Positions 2,792-50,975 of a stretch of DNA of 64,000 nucleotides are shown here, one piece after another (position 1 is the stretch's first letter; each line of letters starts with the position of its first letter). The DNA is taken from the NCBI GenBank assembly GCA_041657385.1, contig JBBABZ010000001.1:29821-93820 (forward strand), read 5' to 3'. The DNA comes from Minisyncoccota bacterium. GTDB taxonomy: Bacteria; Patescibacteriota; Minisyncoccia; Minisyncoccales; JAQTVQ01. The notes below the pieces were generated by a model. The model was given only the letters and a program-made list of their open reading frames with translations, was not told where the DNA came from and did not search any database. The translations under genes were made by a program, and so were the position numbers.

Positions 2792-2809
2792 TGCCTGCCG
2801 GCAGGCAGG
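2792..2809. repeat. GC-rich palindrome TGCCTGCCGGCAGGCAGG (short copy of the CCTGCCTGCCGGCAGGCAGG family)
   Basis: Perfect inverted repeat read directly from the sequence, lying about 14 bp upstream of the ATG of the DUF35 gene. Confidence 0.8.
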
Positions 2810-2822
2810 AAAATTAAAGACT

Positions 2823-3854
2823 ATGTTTTATCAATGTCCGAAATGTAAAAAAACCTGGCAGCACCCGATCGAAAAATGTCCGGATTGTTTTGAGCTGTTG
2901 GAAAGGATGGCCAGCCAAAAAATCAAAGTCTCCGCTGTTTCCAAGATCAGCGTGCCTTCGCTGGCCCACCCGAAAATCCCTTATTTTACTTTGATCCTGG
3001 AAGACGAAGCGGGCAACAAATGGGCGCAAAAAAGCTTTAAAGAATATCAAGCAGGCCAAGAATTTTCTTATGCCTCTTCAAAAGACCCGAATGCCGTAGC
3101 GATCTGGCGGATTAAATACGACCTGCTGGAAGCCATTGAAAAGCTGGTTGATCTGCTTGGCGGGCTGGAGATAACACCCGAAACGAAAATATTGGTCCTT
3201 CCTGCTCTAAACGCTCCCAAACATTCTTATTTCGGCGAGAACACCACCCCGGAATTTTTAGAACAAACTATCCAATATTTAATAAGCCGCGGCGCTGGAA
3301 AAGAGAACATCCAGGTCGCCGGCCAAAGCTTCAACGATATTCCGATCGAAGCTTGCGCCCAAAAGTCCGGACTGCTCAAAGTCTGCTTGAAATACAATAT
3401 TGTTCCGCTTGATCTGGCAAAAAACGCTTTTACTAAAAAAAATGGCTTGGAAATCTCTGAAAATATTTTTTCAGCGGACTTGGCCATCAACCTTGCCGCG
3501 CTGAAGATCGGGCAGGCCTGCGCCTCCGAAAATCTGTTTAAGTTTTTGAAAAAAGAAAATTACCTGGGATTGAAATATCTTTACGGCCAAAAAGAAATTT
3601 TTGAAAAAATGGAAAGCGCCCTGCCTAAAATTCTGACCATAGCCGAGGCCGACCGGGTGCAAACTCCGGAAAAATTCATAAGCTTCCTGGGGCTAGCGCT
3701 GGCAGGGTCCAGCTCCCTTAATATAGATGCCGTTTTCAGCCAGCTCCGCCCGGCTAAAGCTTTGCCAGAAATCTTGTCGGATGTTAAAATCGGAGAGGTT
3801 ATAATTGTCGGACGCACAATTGAAGAAGCCCAATTTGATAACAAAAATATTTAA
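2823..3854 (+). CDS. DUF35 zinc-ribbon/OB-fold protein (thiolase/HMG-CoA-synthase scaffold family) fused to a C-terminal domain of about 230 aa with unknown function
   Basis: N-terminus [23 protein letters not shown] is a CxxC...CxxC zinc ribbon. It is followed by an OB-fold-like segment. The remaining 230 aa have no recognisable motif. Confidence 0.55.
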
Positions 3855-3870
3855 TGGTCAAACACAAATT

Positions 3871-4608
3871 ATGAAAAACAAAATTGTTTTGATAACCGGA
3901 GCGTCGCAGGGAATAGGCAAAGCGATCGCCCTGAAATTCGCAGCGCTTGGCGCGCAAATCGCGCTTAACGACATTCCCAGCCAGGAAGAAAATTTAAAGA
4001 CCGCCAAATCGGAAATAGAAAAGCTCGGAGCCAAAGCCGAATATTTTATGGCCGACGTTTCCAAATTCGATGAAGTGGAAAAAATGATGGCCGGCATTAA
4101 AGAAAAATTCGGAGGCCTGGATGTTCTGGTGAACAACGCCGGCATTGCCAAGGATAGGACATTAGCCAAAATGACCGTTGAAGAATGGCAAAAAGTGATT
4201 GATATTGATTTGACTAGCGTTTTTAATTGCTCCAAACTAGCTTTGCCAATGCTTGTCCCGAACCAAGGAAGCATAGTCAGTCTTTCTTCGGTAGTCGGGC
4301 AGGAAGGAAATTTCGGACAGACCAATTACTCCGCAGCCAAAGCTGGCATTATTGGATTCACTAAATCATTGGCCAAAGAAGTCGGAAGGTTCGGCGTCAG
4401 GGTCAATGCGGTTGCTCCCGGATTTATTGAAACAAAAATGGCTGAAGCCATTCCCGAACAATTGAAAGCTACCGTTAAGCAGCTGACCTCTTTAGGAAGG
4501 TTCGGCCGGCCCGAAGAAGTGGCCAGCGTAATTGCCTTTCTTGCTTCGCCGGATGCTAGCTTTGTGACTGGAGTGGTTCTGAACATTGATGGAGGGCTGG
4601 CGATTTAA
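3871..4608 (+). CDS. fabG: 3-oxoacyl-[ACP] reductase / short-chain dehydrogenase
   Basis: Contains the [12 protein letters not shown] Rossmann motif, NNAG, and the S...YSAAKAG catalytic triad region. Start taken at the ATG at 3871, just after the upstream stop. Confidence 0.85.
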
Positions 4609-4710
4609 GCGAAAAGCTAAAAGCGAAAAGTGTAAAATAAACGAACGAATATTTTACGCTTTGCACTTTTGTTTTGCACTTTTCGCTTTACCTGCCTGCC
4701 GGCAGGCAGG
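4609..4710. repeat. Intergenic palindromic element (GCGNAAAG-unit arms) ending in the 20-bp GC palindrome CCTGCCTGCCGGCAGGCAGG (4691-4710)
   Basis: Arms gcgaaaagctaaaagcgaaaagtgtaaaat / attttacgctttgcacttttgttttgcacttttcgcttta are inverted complements. The perfect GC palindrome is at 4691-4710. Confidence 0.8.
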
Positions 4711-4831
4711 CGCTTTCCAAAAATTTAAAGATTAAAATAATAAATAATAATTCCAAAAATCGAACAGCCAGTATCAAATAAATAAACAAAGGTTATTTGA
4801 CATTAGGATTTTGAAATTTGGATTTAAGCAA

Positions 4832-5812
4832 ATGTTAGTGATAAACCAAAAACAGGTCAAAAAACTTCTTCCTTTAAGCGATATTAAAATCGTAGTTAAA
4901 GCGGTAGAGAACGCTTTCGGCGATTATGGCCGCGAGCTGGTCCAGATGCCCTGCAAGCAATACCTTTATTTCACCGAAAATAACGGCGACTTAAGGGTCA
5001 TGCCTTCTTATTCTTCCGTCTTAAAAATGGCCGGAACAAAAATAGTCAATGTTCATCCAGACAATCCTAAAAAGGGCTTAGCCACTGTCATGGCCAGCAT
5101 TATTTTGAACGATCCGAAAAACGGCATGCCCGTAGCGATGATGGATGGAAGTTATATCACCGCCATGAGAACCGGCGCCGCCGGGGCTGTTGCGGCCAAA
5201 TACCTGGCCCGCGAAGACGCGGCCACTCTCGGAATAGTAGGAGCTGGCGTCCAAGCGATCTATCAAATAGCCGCCACTTCCAAAGTGCGCAAATTAAAAG
5301 ACATTGCTGTTTTCGATCCCAATAAAAAAGCTGCCGACAACCTGATCAAAATTTTAGCCAAAGAAGGGATAAAAGTCCGTGCCGCCGATAGCATCGAAGA
5401 AGCTTGCGGAATGGATATCGTCACCACAACCACTCCCGTTAGAAAACCGATCGTCAAAAAAGAATGGATCAAGCCGGGAGCCCACATCAACGCCATCGGA
5501 GCCGATGCCGAAGGCAAAGAAGAGATAGAAGCGGAAGCCTTGAAAGGAATGAAAATAATTATCGATGACTGGGCGCAGGCCAGCCACTCGGGAGAGATCA
5601 ATGTGCCTCTTAAACAAGGCGTTATAACCAAAGAAGATATTTGGGCCGGATTAGGAGATATAATTGCCGGGAAAAAACAAGGCAGAACCAACGCCGAAGA
5701 AATAACCATCTTTGATTCCACCGGTCTCGGGCTCCAAGATCTTTATACCGCCGTGGAAGTAATGAAGCTGGCCAAGAAAGAGGGAGTGGGAAAAGAAATA
5801 GAACTGATCTAA
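4832..5812 (+). CDS. Ornithine cyclodeaminase / mu-crystallin family NAD(P)-dependent enzyme
   Basis: Family-typical layout with a GIVGAGVQA Rossmann segment and overall similarity to the OCD/AlaDH(archaeal)/ketimine reductase family. The ATG at 4832 is preferred over the TTG at 4811. Confidence 0.6.
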   Translation: MLVINQKQVKKLLPLSDIKIVVKAVENAFGDYGRELVQMPCKQYLYFTENNGDLRVMPSYSSVLKMAGTKIVNVHPDNPKKGLATVMASIILNDPKNGMPVAMMDGSYITAMRTGAAGAVAAKYLAREDAATLGIVGAGVQAIYQIAATSKVRKLKDIAVFDPNKKAADNLIKILAKEGIKVRAADSIEEACGMDIVTTTTPVRKPIVKKEWIKPGAHINAIGADAEGKEEIEAEALKGMKIIIDDWAQASHSGEINVPLKQGVITKEDIWAGLGDIIAGKKQGRTNAEEITIFDSTGLGLQDLYTAVEVMKLAKKEGVGKEIELI

Positions 5813-5817
5813 TAACT

Positions 5818-5958
5818 GGCAAAACTAGGTAAAGTGAAAAAGCGTAAAGTGCAAAGCGAAAAGCGCAAAACAACAGTGCAAAATTTAAAATATTCGTTCG
5901 CTGTTTTTAGCTTTTCGCTGTTGCTTTACGCTTTGCGCTTTTAGCTTTACGCTTAATC
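5818..5958. repeat. Intergenic palindromic element of the GCGTAAAG/GCGAAAAG-unit family
   Basis: Left arm aaagcgtaaagtgcaaagcgaaaagcgcaaaacaacagtg, centre aaaatttaaaatattcgttcg, right arm ctgtttttagcttttcgctgttgctttacgctttgcgcttttagctttacgctt. The element ends 3 bp before the next ATG. Confidence 0.8.
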
Positions 5959-5961
5959 TCT

Positions 5962-7461
5962 ATGTTATATTCCAAAGACCAAATCAAAAATATCATTCCC
6001 TATGATGACCCCTTCCTTTGGGTCGATGAGATCGAGAAGATCGAAGGCGATACAATTTTCGGTTCCAAGCAAACTTCTCCCCAAGATCCGTATTTCAAGG
6101 GTCATTTCGTTGATTTTCCGATCATGCCGGGCGTTTTGGTCGTAGAAGGGCTTGCCCAAACTGGAACTCTTTTACTTCGCGAAAGGCTTGGCAGCAGCCA
6201 CCAGCAAAAACATATCCTAGCCTATCAAGTAAGAAGCGCTATATTCTATTCGCCGATACTGCCCGGAGACAAGATCAAATACAAGGTCCGATTGCTCGGT
6301 ATATACGGCTCCAAGATCGCCAACTTCGTGGGAGAAGCTTATGTGGCAGATACTTTAAAATGCGAGCTTAGATTTTCAGCGGCCATTCTCGACAAAAAAG
6401 AGATGCAGGAAAAATTCCTGGCCGACAGAACAAATTCCCAGCCGGAAAAGAAAAAACTGTTCGAGCTTCCAGCGCTAAAAGTAGGAAGATTTACCGCAAA
6501 ATTACCGATCATCCAAGGAGGAATGGCTGTCCGCGTTTCCCTTCATAAACTGGCTGGCAATGTCGCCAAAGAAGGCGGGGTAGGAATAATCGCCGTTTCG
6601 GGAATGAAGGATCCGCAGGAAGTAAAAGATGAGATCAGAAAAGCGCGCGCAATTGCCGGAGAAAACGGAGCGATCGGCATCAATATAATGGGAGTTGTCG
6701 GACAATTCAAACAGCTGGTAACCGCGGCGGTTGAAGAAAAAGTCGACCTGATAATCCAGGGAGCGGGATTCCGCACGGACATTTTCGAAATGACCAGGGA
6801 AAGCTCCATCCCCGTTTTCGCCATGGCTTCATCAGCGAAAGTAGCTAAAAGGGCGGAAGAAGCTGGCGCATCGGCCGTTGTTGTTGAGGGTTGCGATGCC
6901 GGCGGCCACCTTGGATTCCCTCATGGACATCCTTTCCGTAAAACCATAGACATCATAAAGGAGGTCGTTAAAGAAGTGCGCATCCCCGTTATCGCCGCTG
7001 GAGGCATTTTTGATGGAAAGGATATTGTAGAAATGTTAAGAGCCGGAGCGAAAGGCATTCAAATGGCGACCCGATTCGTTTCGACCGAAGAATGCGATGC
7101 TGACATAAAATTCAAAGAAGCGCACATCAACGCAAAAAAAGAAGACATCGTTATCATCCATTCGCCAGTGGGCCTGCCCGGCCGAGCGATCAAAACCCCT
7201 TTTGTTGAAAAACTTTTGAAAGGAACTGCGCCCAAGCCCGACCCGATCGAGTGCCAAGGCTGTATAGGACCAGTTTGCGACAAAAGCTATTGCATCCTGA
7301 AAGTACTGGAAAACGCCCGGAAAGGAGACTTGGAAAACGGCCTGGTCTTTGCCGGAGCCAACGTTTGGAGAGTAAACAAAATGACAACGGTCAAAGCTTT
7401 AATAAAAGAACTGGTAGATGAAGCGAATGAAATACTGGCTAAGGAGCCGTTAATATCATAA
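5962..7461 (+). CDS. Fusion protein: N-terminal FabZ-like 3-hydroxyacyl-ACP dehydratase hotdog domain plus C-terminal FabK-like (NMO/nitronate monooxygenase TIM-barrel) enoyl reductase
   Basis: N-terminus PFLWVDEIEKIEGDT...GHFVDFPIMPGVLVVEGLAQ matches the FabZ/FabA signature including the catalytic His. From about residue 175 onward, LPIIQGGMAVRVS...GAGF...VVEGCDAGGHLG is FabK/NPD-like. Confidence 0.7.
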   Translation: MLYSKDQIKNIIPYDDPFLWVDEIEKIEGDTIFGSKQTSPQDPYFKGHFVDFPIMPGVLVVEGLAQTGTLLLRERLGSSHQQKHILAYQVRSAIFYSPILPGDKIKYKVRLLGIYGSKIANFVGEAYVADTLKCELRFSAAILDKKEMQEKFLADRTNSQPEKKKLFELPALKVGRFTAKLPIIQGGMAVRVSLHKLAGNVAKEGGVGIIAVSGMKDPQEVKDEIRKARAIAGENGAIGINIMGVVGQFKQLVTAAVEEKVDLIIQGAGFRTDIFEMTRESSIPVFAMASSAKVAKRAEEAGASAVVVEGCDAGGHLGFPHGHPFRKTIDIIKEVVKEVRIPVIAAGGIFDGKDIVEMLRAGAKGIQMATRFVSTEECDADIKFKEAHINAKKEDIVIIHSPVGLPGRAIKTPFVEKLLKGTAPKPDPIECQGCIGPVCDKSYCILKVLENARKGDLENGLVFAGANVWRVNKMTTVKALIKELVDEANEILAKEPLIS

Positions 7462-7462
7462 A

Positions 7463-7562
7463 TAAAAAGCGTAAAGTGCAAAGCGAAAAGCGCAAAACAA
7501 CAGTGTAAAGCTAAAAGCAACGAACGGATATTTTACACTTTTCGCTTTACGCTTTGCACTTA
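7463..7562. repeat. Intergenic palindromic element of the GCGTAAAG-unit family
   Basis: aaagcgtaaagtgcaaagcgaaaagcgcaaaacaacagtg ... cgaacggatattttacacttttcgctttacgctttgcact is a near-identical left arm to the copy at 5818. Confidence 0.8.
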
Positions 7563-7571
7563 ATATCTCCT

Positions 7572-8510
7572 ATGTTTGAAACTAACAAACTGACACAACT
7601 TCTCGGCATTGAGTATCCCGTCATCCAAGGCGGTATGGCTGGCATTTCCGAATCAAAACTGGTTTCGGCTGTTTCCAATGCCGGAGGATTAGGCACCATT
7701 GGCGCAGGATTGATGCCGGCTTCTTGGGTGGAGCAGGAGATCCAAAAAACCCGCCAGCTGACTTCAAAACCTTTTGCCGTAAATCTTTTTATGCAAAACC
7801 AGAAGATTGAAGAAATAGTCAAAGCCATCATCAAAAATAAAGTTCCGATCGTCTTCATCGGAGGCGGCAATCCGATGCTGGTTATGCCTTATTTAAAAAG
7901 CGCGGGCATCAAAACGATCCCGGTCGTCCCTTCTCCCAGGCTTGCCAAAAAAATGGAAGAAAACGACGCCGACGCAATAGTTGTTGAAGGGGTAGAATCA
8001 GGAGGCCATCTTGGGCCCAACACCACTTTTTGCTTGATCCCGCAAACCGTAGAGCTGGTTAAAAAAATCCCGATTATTGCCGCCGGAGGCATTTTTGACG
8101 GACAAACCGCGGCGATGGCGATGGCTGCCGGAGCTGACGGCGTCCAAATAGGCACCCGCTTTTTGGCCACCCCTGAATGCATCATCTCCCAAAGCTATAA
8201 GCAAAAGATCGTCGACTCTTCAGCCGATGATATTGAAATTGTTCTGGCTTTTACCGGCCATCCCTTGCGCGTGATCAAAAACAAATGGGCCGAAGATATG
8301 AAAAAATTGGAAACAAAAAATGTTTTTCCCGAAGAGTTGAACGCGGGAAAGATCGCCGGATCCCTAGGAGGAGAAAATGTCGATAATATCCCTCTTTTAG
8401 CCGGGCTTTGCGCGGCCAGCATTAAAGATATAAAATCTTGCCAAGCGATCATTGAAGAGATCGCCAGCTCTTTAAAAAAATATGAACAAAGCCGTATCAA
8501 CGATCTGTAA
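7572..8510 (+). CDS. fabK: Enoyl-[ACP] reductase II / nitronate monooxygenase family
   Basis: YPVIQGGMAGISESKLVSAVSNAGGLGTIGAG and VEGVESGGHLG motifs. The first ATG is at 7572. Confidence 0.7.
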   Translation: MFETNKLTQLLGIEYPVIQGGMAGISESKLVSAVSNAGGLGTIGAGLMPASWVEQEIQKTRQLTSKPFAVNLFMQNQKIEEIVKAIIKNKVPIVFIGGGNPMLVMPYLKSAGIKTIPVVPSPRLAKKMEENDADAIVVEGVESGGHLGPNTTFCLIPQTVELVKKIPIIAAGGIFDGQTAAMAMAAGADGVQIGTRFLATPECIISQSYKQKIVDSSADDIEIVLAFTGHPLRVIKNKWAEDMKKLETKNVFPEELNAGKIAGSLGGENVDNIPLLAGLCAASIKDIKSCQAIIEEIASSLKKYEQSRINDL

Positions 8511-9135: not shown

Positions 9136-9140
9136 TAGAT

Positions 9141-10676: not shown

Positions 10677-11120
10677 CTAAATCAAATGTCAAATCTCAAA
10701 AGTCAAAACCACAGCTTAAATCCTAAAAACGAACTAAAATTTCGCCGTTATCGCTTTTCCATTGATATTATCAATGCCAGCAAAGATTTCCCGAAAGAAC
10801 GGACATTTGATATTATCGCCAAACAGTTGCTAAGAAGTTCTACCAGTATAGGCGCGAATATTGTTGAGGTAAAATCTTCAAGCTCCCGCAGGGATTTTAT
10901 TAAATTTTATGAAATCGCTCTAAAATCCGCTAATGAAACAAAATATTGGCTTGGACTTTTAAGAGATGGTTTGAATTTTGACGGAGAAAAAATAAATATA
11001 TTCTTGGCTGAAGACGATGAGATATCAAAAATGATCGCCGCGAGCCTAATCACATTAAAAGGTAAAAGGCTTTAATCTATATGGTTTTGAGATTTGACTT
11101 TTGAGTTTTGAAATAAGCTT
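10676..11120. mobile_element. MITE-like element: inverted terminal repeats built from TCAAA(A/T)CTCAAAAGTCAAAACC subunits, carrying a four-helix-bundle gene
   Basis: Left arm tcaaatgtcaaatctcaaaagtcaaaaccaca (about 10683-10714) and right arm ggttttgagatttgacttttgagttttgaa (about 11081-11110) are inverted copies. An empty copy lies at 12185-12318. Confidence 0.5.
10686..11075 (+). CDS. Four-helix-bundle protein (23S rRNA intervening-sequence protein family, TIGR02436-like)
   Basis: Family blocks FPKERTFDIIAKQLLRSSTSIGANIVE and ALKSANETKYWLGLL. The ATG and first 17 or so codons lie inside the repeat arm. Confidence 0.55.
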   Translation: MSNLKSQNHSLNPKNELKFRRYRFSIDIINASKDFPKERTFDIIAKQLLRSSTSIGANIVEVKSSSSRRDFIKFYEIALKSANETKYWLGLLRDGLNFDGEKINIFLAEDDEISKMIAASLITLKGKRL

Positions 11121-11495: not shown

Positions 11496-11529
11496 CTGCG
11501 TAAATTTTCAATTTACAATTCTCAATTTT

Positions 11530-11549
11530 CCTGCCTACCGGCAGGCAGG
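11530..11549. repeat. GC palindrome CCTGCCTACCGGCAGGCAGG (one mismatch), flanked by inverted AT-rich arms (aattttcaatttacaatt / gaaattgaaaattgtaaatt)
   Basis: Read directly from the sequence. The flanking arms at about 11497-11529 and 11606-11640 are inverted copies. Confidence 0.75.
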
Positions 11550-11652
11550 CAATGAATGTTTCAATTTTCAAAAATTCCGTTATCGTCATTGAAGCATTGG
11601 AACATTGTAATTTCATTGGAAATTGAAAATTGTAAATTAAAAATTCACGCTT

Positions 11653-12183
11653 ATGATCATAAAATCATTCTCTCAGCTAGATTCTACCAACACCAAGGCC
11701 AAAGAGCTCGCCCAAAACGGCGCCGCGCCTTGGACTGTTGTCATTGCCGATGAACAAACCAACGGTTATGGCAAAGACCAGCGCGGCTGGTTTTCTCCAA
11801 AAGGCGGCCTTTATTTTTCCATCATCCTTCCTGAAAGCAATATCGACGACCTTCAAACGCTAACCATTTTAGCGGCTTTTGCAGCGGCAAAAACAATAAT
11901 GGAAGAATTCAATTTGCAAACTTTTATCAAGCTGCCGAACGATGTCTGGACGAACAATAAAAAAATAGCGGGCATCCTGACCGAAAACATCATTTCCGGA
12001 AAAAAAATAAAACATTCGGTCATGGGCATAGGCCTCGATACCAATATTGAAAAATTCCCAAAAGAGTTGGCAAGTATCGCCACTTCGCTTAGAATAGAGC
12101 TAGGCAGGGAAGTGGACGATAAAGACCTAATGGAAAAGATAGTAGGAGAACTTAAAAAACAGTTAGAGACGATAAGCAGATAA
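11653..12183 (+). CDS. birA: Biotin-[acetyl-CoA-carboxylase] ligase, catalytic domain only
   Basis: GYGKDQRGWFSPKGGLYFS matches the BirA GRGRxGRxWxSPxGxLYxS signature. No HTH domain is present. Confidence 0.75.
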   Translation: MIIKSFSQLDSTNTKAKELAQNGAAPWTVVIADEQTNGYGKDQRGWFSPKGGLYFSIILPESNIDDLQTLTILAAFAAAKTIMEEFNLQTFIKLPNDVWTNNKKIAGILTENIISGKKIKHSVMGIGLDTNIEKFPKELASIATSLRIELGREVDDKDLMEKIVGELKKQLETISR

Positions 12184-12184
12184 A

Positions 12185-12318
12185 TGGCTCAAAAATCAAA
12201 TCTCAAAATTCAAAACCACAACTAAAAACCAAAAAGCTAAGCGTTATTTAATAAATTATAAAAAGTTAAAAAGTTTTAAATTATAGTTTTGAGCTTTGAC
12301 TTTTAAGTTTTGAATTAG
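12185..12318. repeat. Empty copy of the TCAAATCTCAAAA(G/T)TCAAAACC inverted-repeat (MITE-like) element
   Basis: Left arm tcaaatctcaaaattcaaaaccacaact, right arm agttttgagctttgacttttaagttttgaa, about 60 bp of AT-rich filler between them. Confidence 0.55.
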
Positions 12319-12324
12319 AATACT

Positions 12325-13863: not shown

Positions 13864-13872
13864 TATCAATAT

Positions 13873-14746: not shown

Positions 14747-15427
14747 ATGCCCGCTTCTTATTTTTTAATATCCCTTTTCTCTTACCTGCTCGGTTCAATA
14801 CCGGCCGCTATTTTAATTGGAAAACTTTTCACCAAGAAAAATTTTCAAGAAGAGGGAAGCGGCAATCTTGGCGCCACCAACGCTTTAAGAATCGTCAGCA
14901 AAGAAAAAGGGAAATTCTGGGGAACCGCGGCCTTTCTTGCCGTTTTTCTTTTTGACGCCAGCAAAGCAGTGGCCGCTTGTTTGATCGCAACGAACTTTAT
15001 TCCCGATCGGACCGCAGCTTTAACTCTGGCCGCCTTTTTTACCGTTCTTGGCCATAATTATTCATTGTTTTTAAAATTCCGGGGAGGGAGGGGAGCTGCT
15101 TCCTTGCTTGGCGTCCTCTTATTTTTCGATTGGCGCGTCTTTTTAGCTTGGGTTGGAACTTTTTTGGCCGTAGCCGTTATCTTTGAGGCTGTTGAAAGCA
15201 AAAAAATCGACAAAAAAATAGTGGCCAGAGCCGCTAACCGCCAAATTATCGGCCGTCTTGTTGGAGAGGTCTTAGCCCTTATTCCCATCTACCTTCTCAA
15301 TCAAACTCTTTTTTGGCCAACCCTTTTCGCTACGCCATTGATCCTTATCAAACATAAAGAAAGGGTGAAAAGACAGTTGCAAGAGATAGCTGAAAGCGTA
15401 AAGCTAAAAGCGCAAAGCGTAAAGTAA
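14747..15427 (+). CDS. plsY: Glycerol-3-phosphate acyltransferase
   Basis: LLGSIPAAILIGK and GSGNLGATNALR motifs. Polytopic membrane protein. The C-terminal tail of about 25 aa reads into the repeat element. Confidence 0.8.
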   Translation: MPASYFLISLFSYLLGSIPAAILIGKLFTKKNFQEEGSGNLGATNALRIVSKEKGKFWGTAAFLAVFLFDASKAVAACLIATNFIPDRTAALTLAAFFTVLGHNYSLFLKFRGGRGAASLLGVLLFFDWRVFLAWVGTFLAVAVIFEAVESKKIDKKIVARAANRQIIGRLVGEVLALIPIYLLNQTLFWPTLFATPLILIKHKERVKRQLQEIAESVKLKAQSVK

Positions 15428-15552
15428 CAGCGCCTGCCTGCCGGTAGGCAGGTAAAGCTAAAAGCAACGAACGGATATTTTTAGCTTTACGCTTTTGTTT
15501 TGCGCTTTTCGCTTTGCACTTTACGCTTCCTTGCTTTACGCTTCCTTACGCT
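15405..15552. repeat. Intergenic palindromic element (GCGTAAAG-unit arms) with a central GC palindrome CCTGCCTGCCGGTAGGCAGG (15433-15452)
   Basis: gcgtaaagctaaaagcgcaaagcgtaaagtaacagcg - palindrome - taaagctaaaagcaacgaacggatatttttagctttacgcttttgttttgcgcttttcgctttgcactttacgc. Confidence 0.8.
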
Positions 15553-15673: not shown

Positions 15674-15755
15674 CGTCCGGTCTTGACCGGACGCCCGGTC
15701 GGATGACCGGGCGGATACTGTTGCCGGCTATTAATTTTTAGGTAGCAACCAAACA

Positions 15756-16163
15756 ATGGTCTTGACTAAAAACAAAAAAAATTTCATTATCTTAGCGGGA
15801 GCCCTGTCTCTGTTTTTGTTTTCCGGAGGTGAAGCCTTAGCCGCTGGGATTGTTCCTTGCGGAGGAACGGATTGCACTCTTTGCGATCTCTTTAAAATGG
15901 TTGAGAACATCGTGAACCAGATATTTTATTATCTGGTTCCATCAATCGCCGTTTTGCTTGTTGTTTATGGCGGATTTTTATTAATTACAGCCAGGGGAGA
16001 TGGCAACTCTGAAAATGTGAAAAAAGCTAAAGCCGCTTTAACCGCTGTTGCCGTAGGGTTGCTTATAATTTACGGTTCATATATCGCTGTAAATGAAATA
16101 CTAAGAGCCGTGGGCGTAAAAACAGTCTGGCAGCAAGGGTGGTACCAAATTGATTGCCAGTAA
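15756..16163 (+). CDS. VirB2/TrbC-like pilin-domain protein (signal peptide, PCGG-C-x2-C motif, two-TM hairpin)
   Basis: Cleavable signal ending LAAG, a cysteine cluster, then TM1 LVPSIAVLLVVYGGFLLI, a basic loop and TM2 ALTAVAVGLLIIYGSY. Same architecture as the C-termini of the ORFs at 25162 and 28156. Confidence 0.45.
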   Translation: MVLTKNKKNFIILAGALSLFLFSGGEALAAGIVPCGGTDCTLCDLFKMVENIVNQIFYYLVPSIAVLLVVYGGFLLITARGDGNSENVKKAKAALTAVAVGLLIIYGSYIAVNEILRAVGVKTVWQQGWYQIDCQ

Positions 16164-16168
16164 AAGAA

Positions 16169-16241
16169 GCCCCTATAGCTCAATTGGTAGAGCAGTTGCC
16201 TCTTAAGCAATTGGTTACAGGTTCGAGTCCTGTTGGGGGCA
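16169..16241 (+). tRNA. tRNA-Lys (anticodon CTT)
   Basis: Manual cloverleaf. Acceptor GCCCCTA/TGGGGGC with a G-U pair, anticodon loop CTCTTAA, T-arm ACAGG-TTCGAGT-CCTGT. Confidence 0.8.
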
Positions 16242-31421: not shown

Positions 31422-31452
31422 AAAAGAGGCCGATTAAATTGGCCTCTTTTTT
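31422..31452. terminator. Bidirectional intrinsic terminator hairpin
   Basis: aaaagaggccgattaaattggcctctttttt lies between convergent genes. Confidence 0.6.
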
Positions 31453-41107: not shown

Positions 41108-41135
41108 AAAAAAATCCGCTATAGCGGATTTTTTT
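41108..41135. terminator. Bidirectional intrinsic terminator hairpin
   Basis: aaaaaaatccgctatagcggattttttt lies between convergent dnaN and PBP genes. Confidence 0.65.
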
Positions 41136-41141
41136 ACTTTT

Positions 41142-45111: not shown

Positions 45112-45160
45112 TTTTGGGCCAATTAGCAATTTGTCCCGCATAGCGGGACAAACAATTTAT

Positions 45161-45892
45161 TTAGAATTTTAAATTTGAGAAAGCCCTTGAGATATCATCT
45201 CCGCCCTCTAGCTCCTCCAGAAGTTTTTGATTGGCAGCCATAATTTTTTCATCAGCGGCAACTTCTTCTTTTGGAAACCAGCCAAGAGAAACTTCTTCGG
45301 TCTTTATTCCTTTTGCTTCAATAGTTTTTTTAATCTGTCCCAGTTCTTCTGATTTTGTGTAAATTTCCAAGATGTCTTCATCCCAGCTGGTATTTTCCGC
45401 TCCAGCCTCAATAGCCACCATTTCAAGATCTTCTTTCGATTGGTTCTCGGGGGATTGATTTTTAGCATCGATAACTATATATCCTTTGTTGTCAAACATC
45501 CAGCGGATAGCTCCTTCATTTACAATCTTGCCATTATTTTTATTAAGAACCATCCTTGCTTCGCCCAAGGATCTGTTTTTGTTGTCGGTGATGCCTTCTG
45601 CTATTATCGCTATCCCTCCGGGGCCATAGGCTTCCACGGAAAATTCTTCAAGGGCCGCTCCCGGCAGTTTGCCGGCTCCTCTTAAAATTGCGCGTTCAAT
45701 ATTTTCGCGAGGCATATTAAAGCCATGAGCTTTATCAATGACCGCTTTTAGCTTGTAGTTAGTCTCCGGGTTTTCGCCGGATTTAGCTTCAACTGAAATT
45801 TCCCTAGCTAATTTGGAAAAAACAGAACTGCGCTGCGCATCGGCTAACCCTTTTTTATGTTTTATTCCTGCCCAATGAGAATGACCGCTCAT
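45161..45892 (-). CDS. YebC/PmpR family DNA-binding regulator
   Basis: MSGHSHWAGIKHKKG N-terminus and the family-typical three-domain length (243 aa). Confidence 0.85.
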   Translation of the reverse strand: MSGHSHWAGIKHKKGLADAQRSSVFSKLAREISVEAKSGENPETNYKLKAVIDKAHGFNMPRENIERAILRGAGKLPGAALEEFSVEAYGPGGIAIIAEGITDNKNRSLGEARMVLNKNNGKIVNEGAIRWMFDNKGYIVIDAKNQSPENQSKEDLEMVAIEAGAENTSWDEDILEIYTKSEELGQIKKTIEAKGIKTEEVSLGWFPKEEVAADEKIMAANQKLLEELEGGDDISRAFSNLKF

Positions 45893-45953
45893 AAGTTCTT
45901 CGCCTCGCCGTAGTCCTGAGTTTATCGAAGGACGAAGGCGGGTTTTTAATTAT

Positions 45954-46709
45954 TTAATTAATTTTTTGTTTTAAACTCCTTTTTAAAACTATAATAATTA
46001 TTCCGTTGAAAATTGCAAGGATAAACGCCCAAACTTTTGTTTTCAAACTGATCATTTGGAAATTCTTGGCACTATTATCCATACTGGCATTAAGATCGGC
46101 AGAGTTAATCGTTTCGATTTTTTCCAGTTTTGCTGATCCAAGCTTAGCTTTTTGGACAACCAAGCTGTTTTGAAATTTAGGCGTGCCCCCGAGGGGAATG
46201 CTCGTTTGCCAGTTGCTGGCGGAGGATCCATCTTTTTCAGGGCTGATCCTTTCCATGGTTTGTTTGGAGACATTGTCGCCGCCAAACCAACCTTGGGAGC
46301 AATCGATTTCGTCAACAAGAATTCCTGCCTTATTATAGAGACCGATTTTTTGCCCCTTATTAACTAAAGAGCCCTTAAAGATCATATCAGCTGGGATATT
46401 TGGTAAAGTTTGGTCGTCAGATCTTTCTAAAAGGTAAAAACCCTTAGCGGGAATCATCCCTTTTAAATTAACCTGAAAAGAGTCTTGGACCATTAAGCTC
46501 CAGCCGTTTAAGTTTATACCATAATTAGCGTTATTGTAAAGCTCCAGCCACTCGTCGCTGGCTGTTTTTTCGGTTCCCATCCAGGACACTTCATTAATTG
46601 CGATTTCTTTATTTTCCGCGGCAGAACATTGAGAAGCCAGGGAAAAAACCCAAGAAGAGAAAACAAAAACCAAGATTAGATCAAGTAAAACTGTTGGTCT
46701 TGCTGCCAT
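45954..46709 (-). CDS. Secreted lamin-tail-domain (LTD) protein
   Basis: Signal peptide, then AINEVSWMGTEKTASDEWLELYN...GWSL...LYNKAGILVDE, characteristic of LTD. Confidence 0.55.
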   Translation of the reverse strand: MAARPTVLLDLILVFVFSSWVFSLASQCSAAENKEIAINEVSWMGTEKTASDEWLELYNNANYGINLNGWSLMVQDSFQVNLKGMIPAKGFYLLERSDDQTLPNIPADMIFKGSLVNKGQKIGLYNKAGILVDEIDCSQGWFGGDNVSKQTMERISPEKDGSSASNWQTSIPLGGTPKFQNSLVVQKAKLGSAKLEKIETINSADLNASMDNSAKNFQMISLKTKVWAFILAIFNGIIIIVLKRSLKQKIN

Positions 46710-47692
46710 TTTATTTTTAGATGGTCATATGCCAGCTTAGTGGCGACGCGGCCCTGGGTTGTCCTTTCGACCAGCCCTAATTGCATTAAATAAGGCTCGT
46801 AGAGATTTAAAATAGTATCTTCTTCTTCTGCCGAGGCCGCGGCCAATGATTTTATCCCTACCGGCCCCCCTTGGAATTTATTGATCAGAATTTCTAAAAG
46901 CCTTCGATCGGACGGTCCCAACCCGATCTCGTCGATCTCTAAAAATCCCAGAGAGCTTTTGACGATTTCTTTAGTGACGATCCCTTGTCCTTCCACTTCG
47001 GCAAAATCGCGGACGCGTTTTAACAAGTTATTGGCTATGCGGGGAGTGAAACGGGAACTGCGGGCTAAAATATACAAAGCGTCAGATTCGATCTTTACCT
47101 TGAGAATGTCGGCTGATCTTTGTAATATTTTTTCCAGCTCCGTCTGCCCGTAAAAATTCAATTGATAAACTCCGCCAAAGCGGCTGCGAAGAGGAGGGGA
47201 GATGAGCCCCACTCTGGTGGTGGCTCCGATCAAGGTGAATTTCGGCAAATTAAGCTCAAGCGTTTTAGCCATCGGGCCCTTGCCAAGAACGATGTTCATT
47301 CTAAAATCTTCAATGGCCGGGTAGAGATATTCTTCAACGGTTTTGCAGATGCGGTGGATCTCATCAATAAATAAAACATCCCCTTCGGAAAGGTTGGTTA
47401 AAAGGGCGGCCAAGTCTCCGATTTTTTCGATGGCTGGACCGGAGGTTGTCTTTATGTTAGAATCTAGCTCCTTAGCAATAAGATAAGCTAGGCTGGTTTT
47501 TCCTAAGCCCGCATTGCCGTAAAAAAGCAGGTGGTCGGGCGGTTCTTTTCGTTTCTTCGCCGCGTCGATCATCACCTTAACATTCTTTTTTATTTTCTCC
47601 TGGCCAATATAATCATTCCAAGCTTGAGGCCTTAAAGTTGAATCTATTTTTTCGTCCACTTCTTCGATTGAGAGTTTTTTCTTGACAGACAT
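46676..47692 (-). CDS. ruvB: Holliday junction branch-migration ATPase RuvB
   Basis: LLFYGNAGLGKTSLA Walker A, DEIHR, and a C-terminal winged helix. Confidence 0.9.
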   Translation of the reverse strand: MSVKKKLSIEEVDEKIDSTLRPQAWNDYIGQEKIKKNVKVMIDAAKKRKEPPDHLLFYGNAGLGKTSLAYLIAKELDSNIKTTSGPAIEKIGDLAALLTNLSEGDVLFIDEIHRICKTVEEYLYPAIEDFRMNIVLGKGPMAKTLELNLPKFTLIGATTRVGLISPPLRSRFGGVYQLNFYGQTELEKILQRSADILKVKIESDALYILARSSRFTPRIANNLLKRVRDFAEVEGQGIVTKEIVKSSLGFLEIDEIGLGPSDRRLLEILINKFQGGPVGIKSLAAASAEEEDTILNLYEPYLMQLGLVERTTQGRVATKLAYDHLKIKWQQDQQFYLI

Positions 47693-47724
47693 TTTGAATT
47701 GTGTTATATTGGGAAAACAAAAAC

Positions 47725-47850
47725 AACTTCTAGACTGGGGGTAGGGATTTCTTCTGATTTGGACAATCTGGATTCGTCTGGGCTGCTCCTCAAAGAAATT
47801 CTGCGCCTTAGTAAGCCTATACTAAAGTCCCCCAGTCCAGGGGTTGTTTT
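47725..47850 (+). ncRNA. Candidate structured small RNA of unknown family
   Basis: In a 170-bp intergenic gap, GACTGGGGG (47732-47740) pairs with CCCCCAGTC (47830-47838) to enclose about 90 nt with internal hairpins. It is followed by CAGGGGTTGTTTTTTT (47839-47854). Confidence 0.3.
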
Positions 47851-47862
47851 TTTATATAAAAA

Positions 47863-49158
47863 CTAACCGACCGCTTTTTCTATCTCTTCGATAGTGGTTG
47901 ATCCTTCTAAGACCTTTAAAAATCCGTCTGTTTTCATCGGGATCATCCCTTTTTCTTTAGCTTTTTTGGCTAGCTCAGAGATAGTGGGGTTAATGGCTAT
48001 GAAGTTTTCCAGCTCGCTATCCATTTTAATAGCTTCGTATATGCCGATCCGGCCCTTGTATCCGGTAGAATTACAGTATTCGCAGCCCTTTGGTTCATAA
48101 ACAACAAGGTCTTCTGTTTTTGGATAGTTTTTAAGGACCTCTGCTGGAGCGTCTTTCAGAAATTCTTCCACCTTTTTAATTTCTTCCGGAGCGGCCGGCC
48201 GAGGCTCTGCGCATTTTTTGCAAATTTTTCTAACCAGTCTTTGGGCAATGATCAAATTGATAGCCGGCCCAATGTTGTAAGCCTTTACTTCCATGCTGGT
48301 CAAACGGGAGATAGTGCCGGCGGCATTGTTCGTGTGTAGAGTGCTGAAAACCAAATGTCCGGTCAAGGAAGCTTGAAGGGATATCTCGGCAGTCTCCAAA
48401 TCTCTTATTTCTCCGACCAGTATGACGTCGGGGTCCTGCCTCACGATCGATTTCAGGCCGGAAGCGAAGTCATAGCCTTTTTCCGGAGCTACCTGCGTTT
48501 GGGAAATATCGTCTAAATGGTATTCGATCGGATCTTCAATGGTAATGATCTTAATTTCAGGATCCCTTATCTTTTTTAAAAAGGCGTAAAGGGTGGTTGT
48601 TTTTCCTGATCCTGTCGGTCCGGTAACGATGATCATTCCGTTGGGTTTTTTGATCTCTTTAGTAAATATCTCATAAAGATCGTTTCTTAACCCAAGGTCT
48701 TCCAAACTGATCAAACTTTTCGGATTTAAAATTCTTAAGACAGCCGTTTCGCCGTATTGAGTGGGGAGGGTTGAGGATCTTATCTCTATCTCAAGGTCGG
48801 GCAGAGAGATCGAGAACCGTCCATCTTGAGGTTTGTCTTCAATGTTGAGCTTGAGCCCGGATAAGAGCTTGATCCTTGAAGTCAATAAAGCCTGTTTTTC
48901 AGGTTCGAAAATTATAACATCATGCAGGCAGCCGTCTAATCTGACCCTTAATTTGGCTTGTTTCTCTTGGGCTTCCAAATGCAAGTCGGAGCAGCCGAGA
49001 GAGATGGCCCCGGCTAAAATAGTTTTCAGGATAGAAGAAGTATCTTTTTCCAGCGATGCGTTAATAGATCCTTGGAAATCAGTTAAATTTTTGACTTCAA
49101 TGTCCACTTGGTCCAAGAGGTCTTTTTCGATTTGAATTTTTCCGCTGATTTGCTGCAT
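47863..49158 (-). CDS. Type II/IV secretion-system ATPase (PilB/GspE family), short form lacking the N-terminal domain
   Basis: Walker A TGPTGSGKTT, the VGEIRD Asp box, and a C-terminal zinc-binding CEYC...C. Confidence 0.8.
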   Translation of the reverse strand: MQQISGKIQIEKDLLDQVDIEVKNLTDFQGSINASLEKDTSSILKTILAGAISLGCSDLHLEAQEKQAKLRVRLDGCLHDVIIFEPEKQALLTSRIKLLSGLKLNIEDKPQDGRFSISLPDLEIEIRSSTLPTQYGETAVLRILNPKSLISLEDLGLRNDLYEIFTKEIKKPNGMIIVTGPTGSGKTTTLYAFLKKIRDPEIKIITIEDPIEYHLDDISQTQVAPEKGYDFASGLKSIVRQDPDVILVGEIRDLETAEISLQASLTGHLVFSTLHTNNAAGTISRLTSMEVKAYNIGPAINLIIAQRLVRKICKKCAEPRPAAPEEIKKVEEFLKDAPAEVLKNYPKTEDLVVYEPKGCEYCNSTGYKGRIGIYEAIKMDSELENFIAINPTISELAKKAKEKGMIPMKTDGFLKVLEGSTTIEEIEKAVG

Positions 49159-49195
49159 GTGATTAATTTACCACAGATGAAGCCGGCGGCCTAGC

Positions 49196-50323
49196 TTATT
49201 GGCGGCCGATAGCGTTCAGCGCTTCTTTTTTAGCTGACGCCAGATCTGATTGCCGGGACAAAAAGACAAGGCCCGTTCCCTTTTTCCTCCCTTCGAAATA
49301 TTGATTCATTTTTTCAACGTATTCCTCTTTGTCCGAGTAAAAAATACCCATGATCTTATTTGATCCGTTTTTAGCTTCCGCTTTCCATAGGAGCAGAAAA
49401 GACGGGAGGAAAAGCCGTGTCTTGATCTTGGAGATAACAAACCCAAGATCTTTTGGCGACGCTCCGGCCGATTCAAAATCTTTTTCAGCCAAAGCGGAAC
49501 AGTAAAAACCGGCATCGCCGCAAAATTCTATTTTTTTAAAAGTTTCAGCTAAAAGGTTTTGCTTGGGAGCCTCTTTTTCCTCGTCCGCCCACAAAGAAAA
49601 ATCTGCTCCATTTTTTGCGAGCCAGCTTAAAAACAATATCGATCCTTGCCGGCTGGCTTGTTTTGAGCCCTTTAAGAAAGATGCAAATCCATATAAAAGT
49701 GCATTAGAAACATCTTTATCGACGAGGCTGCTGCCGAAATTTTTTAAAAAATGGGCGCAAGACTGAGAGAGGGTGGAGTTTTTTTCCACCAAGTTAAAAT
49801 CAGCGTATTTTTGGTTAAGGTCGCGGTTGTCGATGTTGATAATTTTTATTTGAGGAAGATATTGATCCGGATTTTTTTCGATCGTTTTTTCAATAGTCTG
49901 AAAATTTTCTATGCCCAGAGAGATTAAAAGGTCAGCCGGTTTTTTTTCTTGGTTTATTTCTGAAAAGCCATCGATATCGCGGCTGGTGATGGCCCCGAAA
50001 GAGAAGTCTTCCAGCTTGATACTTTCTTTTTTTGATTTTATATACAGCTTAACTTCGCCGTCTTTTTTTTCATAATAAATTTCGGAAACATTTTTTTTTA
50101 ACGATATCAAAAAAGTTTTTTGCTCTTCTTTCCTTGCGAGAAGGGCGATCGGTTCGGGAATATTTCGCAGAGAGGGGATGTTTACAATTTTATTAATATT
50201 TTTTAAACTAAAAAAAAGAGCCAAGGCGGCGCCGGCGGCGTCCTGGCTAGGATCATCATGAGTAAGGATGGCTATTCTATTGGCGCCATAAATGGCCTCT
50301 TTTATCTTTTTAAAATCATCCAT
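49196..50323 (-). CDS. Hypothetical protein, possibly a degenerate DHH/NrnA-like phosphoesterase
   Basis: Only weak resemblance (IAILTHDDPSQDAAGAALAL) to DHH motif I/II. No DHH triad was found. Confidence 0.3.
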   Translation of the reverse strand: MDDFKKIKEAIYGANRIAILTHDDPSQDAAGAALALFFSLKNINKIVNIPSLRNIPEPIALLARKEEQKTFLISLKKNVSEIYYEKKDGEVKLYIKSKKESIKLEDFSFGAITSRDIDGFSEINQEKKPADLLISLGIENFQTIEKTIEKNPDQYLPQIKIINIDNRDLNQKYADFNLVEKNSTLSQSCAHFLKNFGSSLVDKDVSNALLYGFASFLKGSKQASRQGSILFLSWLAKNGADFSLWADEEKEAPKQNLLAETFKKIEFCGDAGFYCSALAEKDFESAGASPKDLGFVISKIKTRLFLPSFLLLWKAEAKNGSNKIMGIFYSDKEEYVEKMNQYFEGRKKGTGLVFLSRQSDLASAKKEALNAIGRQ

Positions 50324-50364
50324 AAACTTAATCCAAACTACTTCATTCCTGCTTAAAAGTCAAT

Positions 50365-50892
50365 TTGGGAAATGAGTCTGACTCTGCAGAAAAATTGATG
50401 GAAATACAAACGACCGGGTATAAAAAAACTCAAGAACTTGGCAATATTTTTGCCCAGGAAATTTTAAGGAAGGGGCCGCAGGAAAAAGCGGTCGTTCTAG
50501 CATTATCTGGCGACCTGGGAGGAGGGAAAACCACTTTTTCCCAGGGTTTTGCGAAGGGGCTGGGAGTCAAAAATAGAATAACAAGCCCCACCTTTACGAT
50601 TTTTAAAAGGTTTAAGATCAGTTTGGTCCGCGGCAGGGTTCCTCAAAAAATAGATTTTGAAAGTTTTTATCATTTCGATTGTTATCGGCTTTTGGGGCCG
50701 AAAGATATTTTAGAGTTGGGATTTAAGGAGATTGTTTCATCCCCTAAAAATATTATTTTACTGGAATGGGCGGAAAGAGTTAAGAAGGTATTGCCGAAAG
50801 AAACCATCTGGCTGAATTTTGACTTTGTGAGCCCGAACAAAAGGAAGATCGTGTTAAGCGAAAAGCGCAAAGCGAAAAGCGCAAAACAATAG
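50365..50892 (+). CDS. tsaE: tRNA threonylcarbamoyladenosine biosynthesis protein TsaE
   Basis: LSGDLGGGKTTFSQG P-loop, SPTFTI, and HFDCYRL. Confidence 0.75.
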   Translation: MGNESDSAEKLMEIQTTGYKKTQELGNIFAQEILRKGPQEKAVVLALSGDLGGGKTTFSQGFAKGLGVKNRITSPTFTIFKRFKISLVRGRVPQKIDFESFYHFDCYRLLGPKDILELGFKEIVSSPKNIILLEWAERVKKVLPKETIWLNFDFVSPNKRKIVLSEKRKAKSAKQ

Positions 50893-50975
50893 CGCCTGCC
50901 TGCCGGTAGGCAGGTAAAGTTTAAAATATCCGTTTGTTGCTTTACGCTTTTCGCTTTTAGCTTTACGCTTAACAA
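50857..50975. repeat. Intergenic palindromic element (GCGAAAAG-unit arms) with a central GC palindrome CCTGCCTGCCGGTAGGCAGG (50895-50914)
   Basis: gcgaaaagcgcaaagcgaaaagcgcaaaacaatagcg - palindrome - taaagtttaaaatatccgtttgttgctttacgcttttcgcttttagctttacgctt. The left arm encodes the C-terminal tail of TsaE. Confidence 0.8.

Follow-up and report, generated by a model that had tools for sequence, protein, structure and literature searches.

A recurrent 20-bp palindrome in a Paceibacterota genome is probably a mobile module tied to Slx1-like GIY-YIG nuclease cassettes at tRNA genes

The stretch of DNA analysed here (hereafter the window: 64,000 nucleotides of contig JBBABZ010000001.1, assembly GCA_041657385.1, from a Minisyncoccota bacterium of the Paceibacterota within the Candidate Phyla Radiation, CPR) carries five copies of a 20-bp palindrome, CCTGCCT(G/A)CCGG(C/T)AGGCAGG (hereafter PAL; searched for in the window as CCTGCCTGCCGGYAGGCAGG), whose recurrence had been noticed in an earlier reading of the sequence alone. 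We find that PAL is a standing component of cassettes in which a small Slx1-like GIY-YIG nuclease gene sits at duplicated tRNA genes, that it is a discrete insertion module of exactly 20 bp with no target duplication, and that its copies within one genome are related to one another. On balance, we consider it probable that PAL is a mobile module tied to these cassettes and that the window copies, which have no nuclease gene nearby, are solo copies of it.

The association with the nuclease emerged from small open reading frames (ORFs) adjacent to PAL, which encode a GIY-YIG domain (Pfam PF01541 at 2.8e-15). A tblastn search with two of them against loci selected for the presence of PAL returned eight relatives, six of which lie within ~125 nt of a palindrome, and 56 control viral loci (530 kb) held neither small ORF nor PAL. 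For an independent test, metagenome loci were collected by protein homology alone (600 candidate stretches, 554 confirmed), and the best 80 of the 554 were analysed, near-duplicates among which bring the effective sample nearer to 70. PAL is present at up to 3 mismatches in 44 of the 80, mostly as an exact match; in 31 it stands (with at most one mismatch) within 120 nt upstream of the protein match, at a median of 28 nt and a range of 12-51, in six it lies just downstream of the nuclease gene, and a hairpin of the wider form CCYGCCY...RGGCRGG, the family of which PAL is the shortest and commonest member, is found in 57. The query having been built from PAL-adjacent genes, this association of 39-71% describes that particular GIY-YIG subfamily. 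The far flanks of the same loci hold 3 PAL in 62 kb, and the encoded proteins share 43-63% identity with the query while PAL stays exact. A protein-based scan of viral contigs returned only the two GIY-YIG loci already known, too few to inform.

The layout of these loci, as resolved by ARAGORN and pairwise alignment, follows a common plan: an orphan full or partial tRNA copy is succeeded by an ORF of ~80 aa, the stop codon of which often falls inside the next gene, and then by the intact gene for the same tRNA. Mirror-image cassettes, in which the intact tRNA comes first and the ORF is followed by an orphan 3′ copy, also occur, and the isotypes involved are Asn, Lys, Arg (four anticodons), Phe, Leu, His, Gly, Val, Gln, Glu and Met. 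When the two copies of a tRNA gene are aligned, PAL or a hairpin related to it appears in the orphan as an exact insertion, most commonly in the D-loop at positions 21/22 (GGTA^GAGC, the caret marking the insertion point) or in the T-loop (GGTTC^GATTCC), more rarely at positions 9/10, 26-32 or 39, and sometimes as two or three hairpins together. The cassettes lie between an intact and an orphan copy, with PAL interrupting the latter. A cassette with PAL-laden orphan tRNA copies is also present on a 168-kb contig from the Paceibacterota, the window's own phylum. We discarded a reading of these loci as group I tRNA introns: an ORF of 240 nt with another full tRNA copy behind it does not make an intron. 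A study of group I tRNA introns in Patescibacteria mentions neither a palindrome nor a GIY-YIG protein (PMC13011429).

Two further observations concern the cassettes. Other GC-rich hairpins occupy fixed positions of orphan tRNA copies beside GIY-YIG genes (L231:690-800, L250, L281, L289, L256, L244), with examples among loci L231-L310 including TCCGCCAGAGGCGGACAGG and TTTACCTCCCGAAGGGAGG after GTAGCT and CCCGCCCGAACGTACCGTTCGGTACGGGCGGG at GGCTA^GAGC, and there seems to be a family of hairpin modules with conserved ends and variable apical parts. At L089:3760-4260 a GIY-YIG ORF, preceded by PAL at ~40 nt, interrupts the conserved central linker (...LVP-PAL-QDPND...ASELLKEIEAEK) of a gene that we take, from the conserved central motif in its translation, to be a type I restriction hsdS; the 20 nt of PAL shift the frame and the upstream half-gene is fused to the nuclease ORF.

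That PAL is inserted as a unit is seen most directly where filled and empty sites can be compared. Within the window, the hairpin elements E4 and E5 carry exactly 20 bp that their relative E3 lacks (Table 1), and the alignment of six such elements shows a clean gap of 20 columns, E4 and E5 reading A(C/T)AGCG-PAL-TAAAG while E2, E3 and E7 run continuously across the junction. At locus L052, an orphan tRNA-Lys 5′ half reads GGTAGA-PAL-GCAGCGGC against GGTAGAGCAGCGGC in the intact gene, which lies 280 nt downstream; at L093, the orphan tRNA-Leu 5′ part has two 20-nt inserts relative to the intact gene. Dozens of orphan-to-intact alignments reveal no tRNA nucleotide lost at PAL, and no target-site duplication was found either in these tRNA alignments or in four direct empty-versus-filled comparisons. 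The bases flanking PAL at -1/+1 are equal in just 36% of copies, and the sole flank preference is an avoidance of A at the first outward base (7%). A phage tRNA-Met that bears PAL as an extra variable arm is still called as a tRNA. The notion that PAL might itself be a tRNA anticodon arm was rejected, its loop sizes being a misfit and every ARAGORN tRNA call either lying next to PAL or treating PAL as an additional arm. A further arrangement exists at L021:4010-4225: behind a tRNA-like 5′ part that has PAL in its D-stem region come, in this order, a complete tRNA-Met and a matching tRNA 3′ part with a CCA end. Either one tRNA gene has been split around another here, or the locus has been rearranged.

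Relatedness among the copies of one genome is apparent from their apical variants. The genome under study holds at least seven copies of PAL in ~78 kb, two of them beyond the window, at L317:4558 (5 kb past its right end and 17 nt from a tRNA gene) and at L318:5717 (3 kb past its left end, in an inverted copy of E5), and five of the seven full copies share one single-arm apex variant in three unrelated types of flank. Across 16 genomes or contigs with at least two PAL, 42 of 50 pairs are concordant as variant or perfect (permutation p = 1.5e-4), and among 188 copies single-arm variants number 63 and double-arm variants 2. Such single-arm variants, shared between unrelated flanks, point to copying of an existing 20-mer rather than to its symmetric synthesis anew, and the inverted E5 copy indicates that some PAL copies travel together with their host element.

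The protein encoded by the cassettes is homologous to UPF0213 proteins and to eukaryotic SLX1: a profile built from seven PAL-adjacent proteins matches PDB entries 1ZG2 (BH0048; E = 1.7e-12) and 1YWL (EF2693; 5.3e-12), described as 'hypothetical UPF0213 protein', as well as chains of the SLX1 structure-specific endonuclease at 3e-5 to 2e-3, and NCBIfam has no model for it. The family is large, with more than 7,000 clusters scored, and its sources (Chitinophagaceae, Flavobacteriaceae, Sphingobacteriales, Ignavibacteriaceae, Omnitrophica, WWE3, Buchananbacteria and Paceibacterota) overlap the taxa that bear PAL. It belongs to the minimal prokaryotic Slx1-like GIY-YIG branch described earlier, SLX1 being a structure-specific endonuclease; the members of that branch were treated as mainly vertically inherited, repair-type proteins and not as cassettes that move with a satellite palindrome (PMC1564403). 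The partner of PAL is most likely a selfish Slx1-like GIY-YIG nuclease and not a host regulator, and we recognise no DNA-binding module in its ~80-aa catalytic domain. To our knowledge, experiments have yet to assign a function to bacterial UPF0213/Slx1-like proteins; SLX1 cleaves DNA with branches or stem-loops, and PAL in hairpin or cruciform form would suit such an enzyme as a substrate.

PAL is spread far beyond the Paceibacterota. Counting its R/Y apex variant, it occupies at least 120 loci in more than 10 phyla of reference genomes taken one per species, against a chance expectation of ~2 matches in 596 Gb if uniform composition is assumed. Among the matches listed are Bacteroidota (with the cultured Winogradskyella, Olivibacter and Flagellimonas), Patescibacteria, Saccharibacteria, WWE3, Omnitrophota, Planctomycetota, Ignavibacteria, Nitrospirota, Chloroflexota, Bdellovibrionota, and gamma- and delta-proteobacteria. 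Viral contigs hold PAL in 48 stretches, as against 1 for a composition-matched control palindrome with central CCGG. The flanks are unrelated from genome to genome; open frames longer than 600 nt contain 16% of 127 genome copies, compared with 72% of random positions, and 92% of the copies in PAL-selected loci are more than 300 nt from any tRNA gene. Our search of the openly searchable literature, which leaves most subscription journals outside so that a prior description is possible, returned no account of the PAL sequence or of the nuclease-tRNA arrangement.

Several side observations accompany this distribution. In CPR genomes PAL is found in frame within coding genes, namely that for ribosomal protein S6 (L068:3283-3582) and those for two large membrane proteins (L060:888-2306; L105 near 5886); the Daviesbacteria S6 reads ...SDG-LPAGRQG-EIF... 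and retains a Pfam Ribosomal_S6 match at 1.8e-18, and the membrane proteins read ...EG-LPAGRQG-NIF..., the 21-nt reading frame being kept. Further short GC palindromes recur in PAL loci of unrelated taxa (L014, L022, L177, L191 and others), with TCCGCCAGCTGGCGGA in 5 loci, CCCGATAGCTATCGGG in 4, CCCTCTCC..GGAGAGGG in 4 and ATTCCCGCGAAAGCGGGAAT in 2, and in L191 they are nested, gcga-TCCGCCAGCTGGCGGA-gaagcaatc lying inside a 'cattgcga...gaagcaatc' hairpin; a wider set of hairpin modules shared across phyla may exist. TCCGCCAGCTGGCGGA was considered as a second universal palindrome and rejected, its 55 viral stretches being mostly ordinary coding sequence of GC-rich phages. Short-read assemblies often break at PAL or in octamer elements (contig starts L171 and L172; L013, L037, L038, L110), and repeats of both kinds will fragment CPR assemblies and be under-counted in metagenome-assembled genomes.

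In the window itself, all five copies are intergenic, no 10-nt PAL half-site occurs elsewhere, and dinucleotide-preserving shuffles gave no match in 100 trials, so that the recurrence reported by the sequence-only reading is real and chance is negligible. Some of its particulars need revision. The copies, all taken there for perfect or one-mismatch palindromes, are so at 4691, 11530, 15433 and 50895, the last three each departing from the perfect form by one transition beside the dyad centre, but the first matches at only 18 of 20 positions (its sequence is the same in the independent assemblies L318 and L319); the genome, called AT-rich, is only moderately so (37-47% GC in the window, mean ~42%). 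Three copies had been placed at the centre of octamer-repeat elements and are instead found at an AGCG-PAL-TAAAG junction, as a side hairpin of a multi-branched fold; of the two said to be flanked by other AT-rich inverted arms, the one at 11530 does lie in a long A/T-rich hairpin, unrelated to the octamer elements, in the gap between BCCP-like and biotin/lipoate-ligase-like genes, and the one at 2790 occupies the space separating the divergently transcribed DUF359 (-) and DUF362 (+) genes, with the ATG at 2823 following 14 nt later. The fourth copy is 148 nt upstream of a tRNA-Arg gene, and the fifth occupies the gap between tsaE and a 5′-3′ exonuclease gene. The surrounding genes include those for fatty-acid synthesis, acetyl-CoA carboxylase, plsY, tsaE, the 5′-3′ exonuclease, ruvABC and a CPR-typical pilin; the exonuclease is identical to a protein that NCBI lists for a 'Candidatus Paceibacterota bacterium' metagenome-assembled genome.

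Three of these copies reside within long imperfect hairpins that form a family of seven, their arms being built of (AAAGCGNA)n octamer repeats (Table 1). E1 has PAL at a different octamer junction from E4 and E5, with the same local sequence, and E5 has a 94% identical inverted copy, PAL included, outside the window at L318:5661-5775. In single-strand folding, the host elements come out far stabler than their shuffled counterparts (z = -5 to -6.6), and PAL projects as a side hairpin where helices join; PAL alone, as single-stranded DNA, is predicted to fold into a stem of 8 bp with CCGG in the loop (-8 kcal/mol). Hairpin elements occupy the majority of intergenic gaps in the window irrespective of PAL. 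Insertion at the apex of a larger hairpin was entertained as a general rule and is unsupported beyond the window, the pairing energy of 45-nt flanks showing no difference between 80 solo PAL copies and 404 non-coding control positions (median -13.4 vs. -13.0, p = 0.38).

Table 1. PAL copies and hairpin elements of the window (E, hairpin element; hyphens in sequences mark junctions)
Feature	Position	Strand	Description
PAL copy 1, degenerate (ATTGCCTGCCGGCAGGCAGG)	2790..2809	.	perfect core 2792-2807; left arm starts AT, not CC; right arm complete
PAL copy 2, perfect 20-bp palindrome	4691..4710	.	in E1, junction AAAGCG-PAL-TAAAGC (reverse orientation)
PAL copy 3, apex variant ACCGGC on + strand	11530..11549	.	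within A/T-rich long hairpin
PAL copy 4, apex variant GCCGGT on + strand	15433..15452	.	in E4 at ACAGCG-PAL-TAAAGC
PAL copy 5, apex variant GCCGGT	50895..50914	.	in E5 at ATAGCG-PAL-TAAAGT
E1, long imperfect octamer hairpin	4603..4718	-	PAL as side hairpin; fold z = -5.0
E2, octamer hairpin without PAL	5836..5958	+	from alignment
E3, empty-site relative of E4, without the 20 bp	7462..7566	+	flanks same: AACAGTG-TAAAGCTAAAAGCAACGAACGGATATTTT
Host hairpin of PAL copy 3	11496..11650	+	arms of type AATTTTCAATTTACAATT / AATTGTAAATTGAAAATT; fold z = -6.6
E4	15390..15530	+	predicted three-way junction of outer octamer stem, PAL hairpin and inner hairpin; z = -6.4
E5, PAL-bearing octamer hairpin	50852..50975	+	from sequence alignment and fold
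Half element of octamer hairpin family	53095-53129		from sequence
E7, octamer hairpin without PAL	57458..57592	+	from alignment

A host-beneficial hairpin in RNA or DNA (a terminator, mRNA stabiliser, processing site or nucleoid-protein site), selected independently or retained, would account for the stable stem and for the placement of 84% of 127 copies outside frames longer than 600 nt, where only 28% of random positions fall. Effects on 3′ untranslated regions have moreover reportedly been found for the closest analogue, the repetitive extragenic palindromic sequences (REPs). Yet none of the window copies, GC stem-loops though they are, has a sense-strand T-tract, and a terminator consensus scan called only those at 2790 and 50895, both antisense to the flanking genes, while ordinary A/T-flanked terminator hairpins with a T-tract exist elsewhere in the window (31422-31450 and 45130-45152). 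The PAL contexts (70 co-directional, 15 divergent and 15 convergent, vs. 482, 134 and 114 for all gaps, assessed for the 188 copies in other genomes with crude longest-ORF gene calls) match the background without convergent, divergent or upstream enrichment, so that neither a terminator or promoter role nor a placement at the ends of genes or operons finds support there. Selection for an RNA hairpin is likewise unsupported, the G:U-compatible apex variant showing no preference for the sense strand (sense 12, antisense 16), and Rfam at gathering score reports two tRNAs only in the window and tRNAs only in eleven cassette loci. Syntenic contigs of related Paceibacterota (exonuclease 66-81% identical) have no PAL in ~39 kb, with hairpins present at the orthologous gaps, and related elements of the same genome also go without it; ribosomal protein S6 tolerates PAL in frame, a phage tRNA tolerates it as an additional arm, and a composition-matched hairpin is ~50 times rarer, which makes stem stability alone insufficient. 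The occurrence of one 20-mer in many phyla and phages is not what a lineage-specific regulator or nucleoid-protein site would show. Of the proposal that PAL is a conserved hairpin or a regulator's site, the capacity to form a hairpin therefore stands and a protein partner is plausible; a host terminator, processing or regulator site does not stand, and a dimeric host regulator or nucleoid protein is contradicted by the missing divergent or upstream enrichment, the absence from orthologous sites and the cross-phylum identity. We judge a host-beneficial hairpin very unlikely, and the window palindromes are not to be labelled terminators or operators. Even less can be said for chance recurrence or for an artefact of assembly or sequencing: assemblies can break at palindromes, and several PAL matches do lie at contig ends (e.g., L171, L172), but shuffles yield none, PAL is identical in independent assemblies from different samples and pipelines, it is found in cultured isolates and a curated complete genome, and its position within tRNA copies is structured, and we give this explanation practically no credence.

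Two other readings keep the nuclease in the picture. PAL could be an operator or binding site of the GIY-YIG or another dimeric protein, repressing or positioning the nuclease, with solo copies as extra sites or decoys. It is a perfect dyad, its distance to the nuclease start is near-constant whichever tRNA position carries it, it is strictly conserved while the protein diverges, and I-TevI is itself an autorepressor. An operator leaves unexplained, however, the exact 20-bp copies at unrelated sites, and it sits poorly with the two or three hairpins of some orphans, with PAL downstream of the gene in some cassettes, with related hairpins of different apical sequence at the same sites and with a protein lacking a DNA-binding module; we hold this reading to be unlikely. 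The palindrome could alternatively be a footprint of break repair, made anew each time: the nuclease or another enzyme would cut structured DNA, such as the loops of tRNA genes, and both 3′ ends would receive a fixed 10-nt sequence before they are joined. The insert is indeed a perfect dyad of two identical 10-mers with the target neither duplicated nor lost, the same tRNA site also bears shorter symmetric forms such as CCTGCAGG, and in cassettes PAL precedes the gene insertion point by a short and rather uniform distance, much as the cleavage site of the GIY-YIG enzyme I-TevI is offset from its insertion point. Asymmetric single-arm variants, common and shared among unrelated flanks of one genome, tell against such symmetric synthesis, we know of no enzyme that adds a fixed 10-mer, and the footprint appears to us quite improbable.

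The account that we favour is that PAL is a mobile module of the GIY-YIG tRNA cassettes. PAL would have entered pre-existing intergenic hairpin elements of the Paceibacterota genome as exact 20-bp insertions, and at least one window copy would then have spread further along with its host element. The nuclease may recognise PAL by its sequence, its conserved ends or an extruded hairpin or cruciform, and may mobilise it in trans, as the REP-associated tyrosine transposases (RAYTs) do REPs; this trans-mobilisation is a possibility to which we give somewhat less than an even chance. Within the orphan tRNA, PAL may mark or disable the cleavage site of the nuclease, or may break up a direct repeat otherwise able to delete the cassette. 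At the window sites PAL would have no required host function, because orthologous hairpins go without it and neither a context bias nor an RNA-strand bias is seen; sequence comparison of the orthologous sites indicates that the window copies are dispensable there. Several points weigh against this account. A tblastn search found no gene of the PAL-linked family in the 64-kb window or in ~14 kb adjoining it, and its presence in the genome is unproven; ~95% of the copies in PAL-selected loci are solo and most are far from tRNA genes; E4, E5 and L318:5717 may share PAL by descent with the octamer element and not through separate insertions; an 80-aa domain without obvious sequence recognition leaves the strict conservation of PAL unexplained; and we know of no biochemical mechanism by which a GIY-YIG nuclease copies a 20-bp palindrome to new sites. 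A bolder form, in which PAL, devoid of coding capacity, is the smallest mobile DNA element so far recognised, copied via a structure-specific Slx1-like nuclease that parasitises and duplicates tRNA genes, and the two make up a new autonomous/non-autonomous pair carried between phyla by phages, the sequence being held by nuclease recognition, is in our estimation doubtful.

Among known systems, REPs (or their doublets, REPINs) and RAYTs are the closest analogue in logic: PAL is likewise a short GC-rich extragenic palindrome with many solo copies that flanks one or few nuclease genes and occasionally enters coding regions, and REPs have been assigned many host roles. PAL fails the defining features of that system, however. 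Its flanked gene is a GIY-YIG nuclease and not an HUH Y1 transposase such as RAYT, for which no search was made. In REP superfamilies one end of the palindrome bears an unpaired tag, GTAG or CGTC (PMC3733652), whereas PAL is a perfect dyad with no terminal tag, occurs as single 20-bp units and not as doublets, and has its cassette in duplicated tRNA genes; REP sequences are specific to a species or genus, and PAL is identical across phyla and in phages. PAL shares inverted-repeat ends with miniature inverted-repeat transposable elements, which depend on a DDE transposase, but lacks their target-site duplication. GIY-YIG homing endonucleases offer a second comparison. SegB of phage T4 is reportedly a GIY-YIG endonuclease linked to a tRNA gene cluster, and the cassettes resemble SegB and I-TevI in placing the gene in or next to tRNA genes, in a PAL-gene spacing reminiscent of an offset cleavage site and in the implied spread by break repair. 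Seg and Tev enzymes are proteins of 200-250 aa with C-terminal DNA-binding domains, whereas the PAL-linked proteins are bare Slx1/UPF0213 catalytic domains of ~80 aa, and we know of no dispersed palindromic satellite of a Seg or Tev enzyme. The GC clusters of yeast mitochondria and the Rickettsia palindromic elements (RPE), which are polymorphic, tolerated in proteins and RNA genes and of unknown mechanism, are similarly small GC-rich or palindromic modules scattered through an AT-richer genome; they measure 30-150 bp, are lineage-restricted and are not tied to a specific nuclease, in contrast to a cross-phylum PAL of 20 bp. With Rho-independent terminators PAL has in common a GC-rich intergenic stem-loop, but neither the 3′ U-tract, nor the orientation to genes, nor the convergent enrichment.

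If the favoured account is true, it would give a function and a selfish lifestyle to widespread, uncharacterised bacterial UPF0213/Slx1-like proteins and would add a second, mechanistically different relationship of the REP-RAYT type. A 20-mer identical across phyla and in phages would let horizontal spread and purifying selection be studied directly. The account would also explain a class of orphan tRNA fragments and tRNA-like pseudogenes that go unannotated in the genomes of CPR bacteria, Bacteroidota and phages, as well as short LPAGRQ-type inserts in proteins, and could provide a possible tool in the form of a minimal nuclease with a defined 20-bp hairpin partner.

Finally, a number of features of the window lie beside these questions. 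Long intergenic hairpins with arms of short-period repeats, (AAAGCGNA)n in this genome, occupy gaps between co-directional genes, starting at or before the upstream stop codon and ending ~8 nt before the next ATG. Hairpins of related Paceibacterota (L311:2480-2600, L312:9870-10010 and 15920-16200, L314:180-356) hold the same positions with quite different arm repeats and a similar apex (AAAATAT-CG..AACGG / CCGTT), and a signal for long-dsRNA (double-stranded RNA) processing or stability is one possibility. The left arms of E4 (15377-15427) and E5 (50852-50892) encode the last 15-17 codons of plsY and tsaE, whose Pfam matches end at residue 209 of 226 and 160 of 175, respectively; the hairpin elements appear to have supplanted the 3′ ends and stop codons that both genes originally had. 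Directly 3′ of tRNA-Arg, at 15674-15713, stand two successive GC-rich hairpins (CGTCCGGTCTTGACCGGACG, CGCCCGGTCGGATGACCGGGCG), followed by a small T4SS-pilin-like gene (15756-16163) and, immediately 3′ of it, tRNA-Lys. A 52-nt direct repeat (10682-10733 and 12189-12240, 83% identical; TCAAA(T/A)(G/A)TCAAATCTCAAAA(G/T)TCAAAACCACA...) has its first copy at the beginning of a gene for a 23S-rRNA-intervening-sequence protein that interrupts the acetyl-CoA carboxylase cluster; its second, 1.5 kb downstream, forms one arm of another A/T-rich hairpin (12183-12320).

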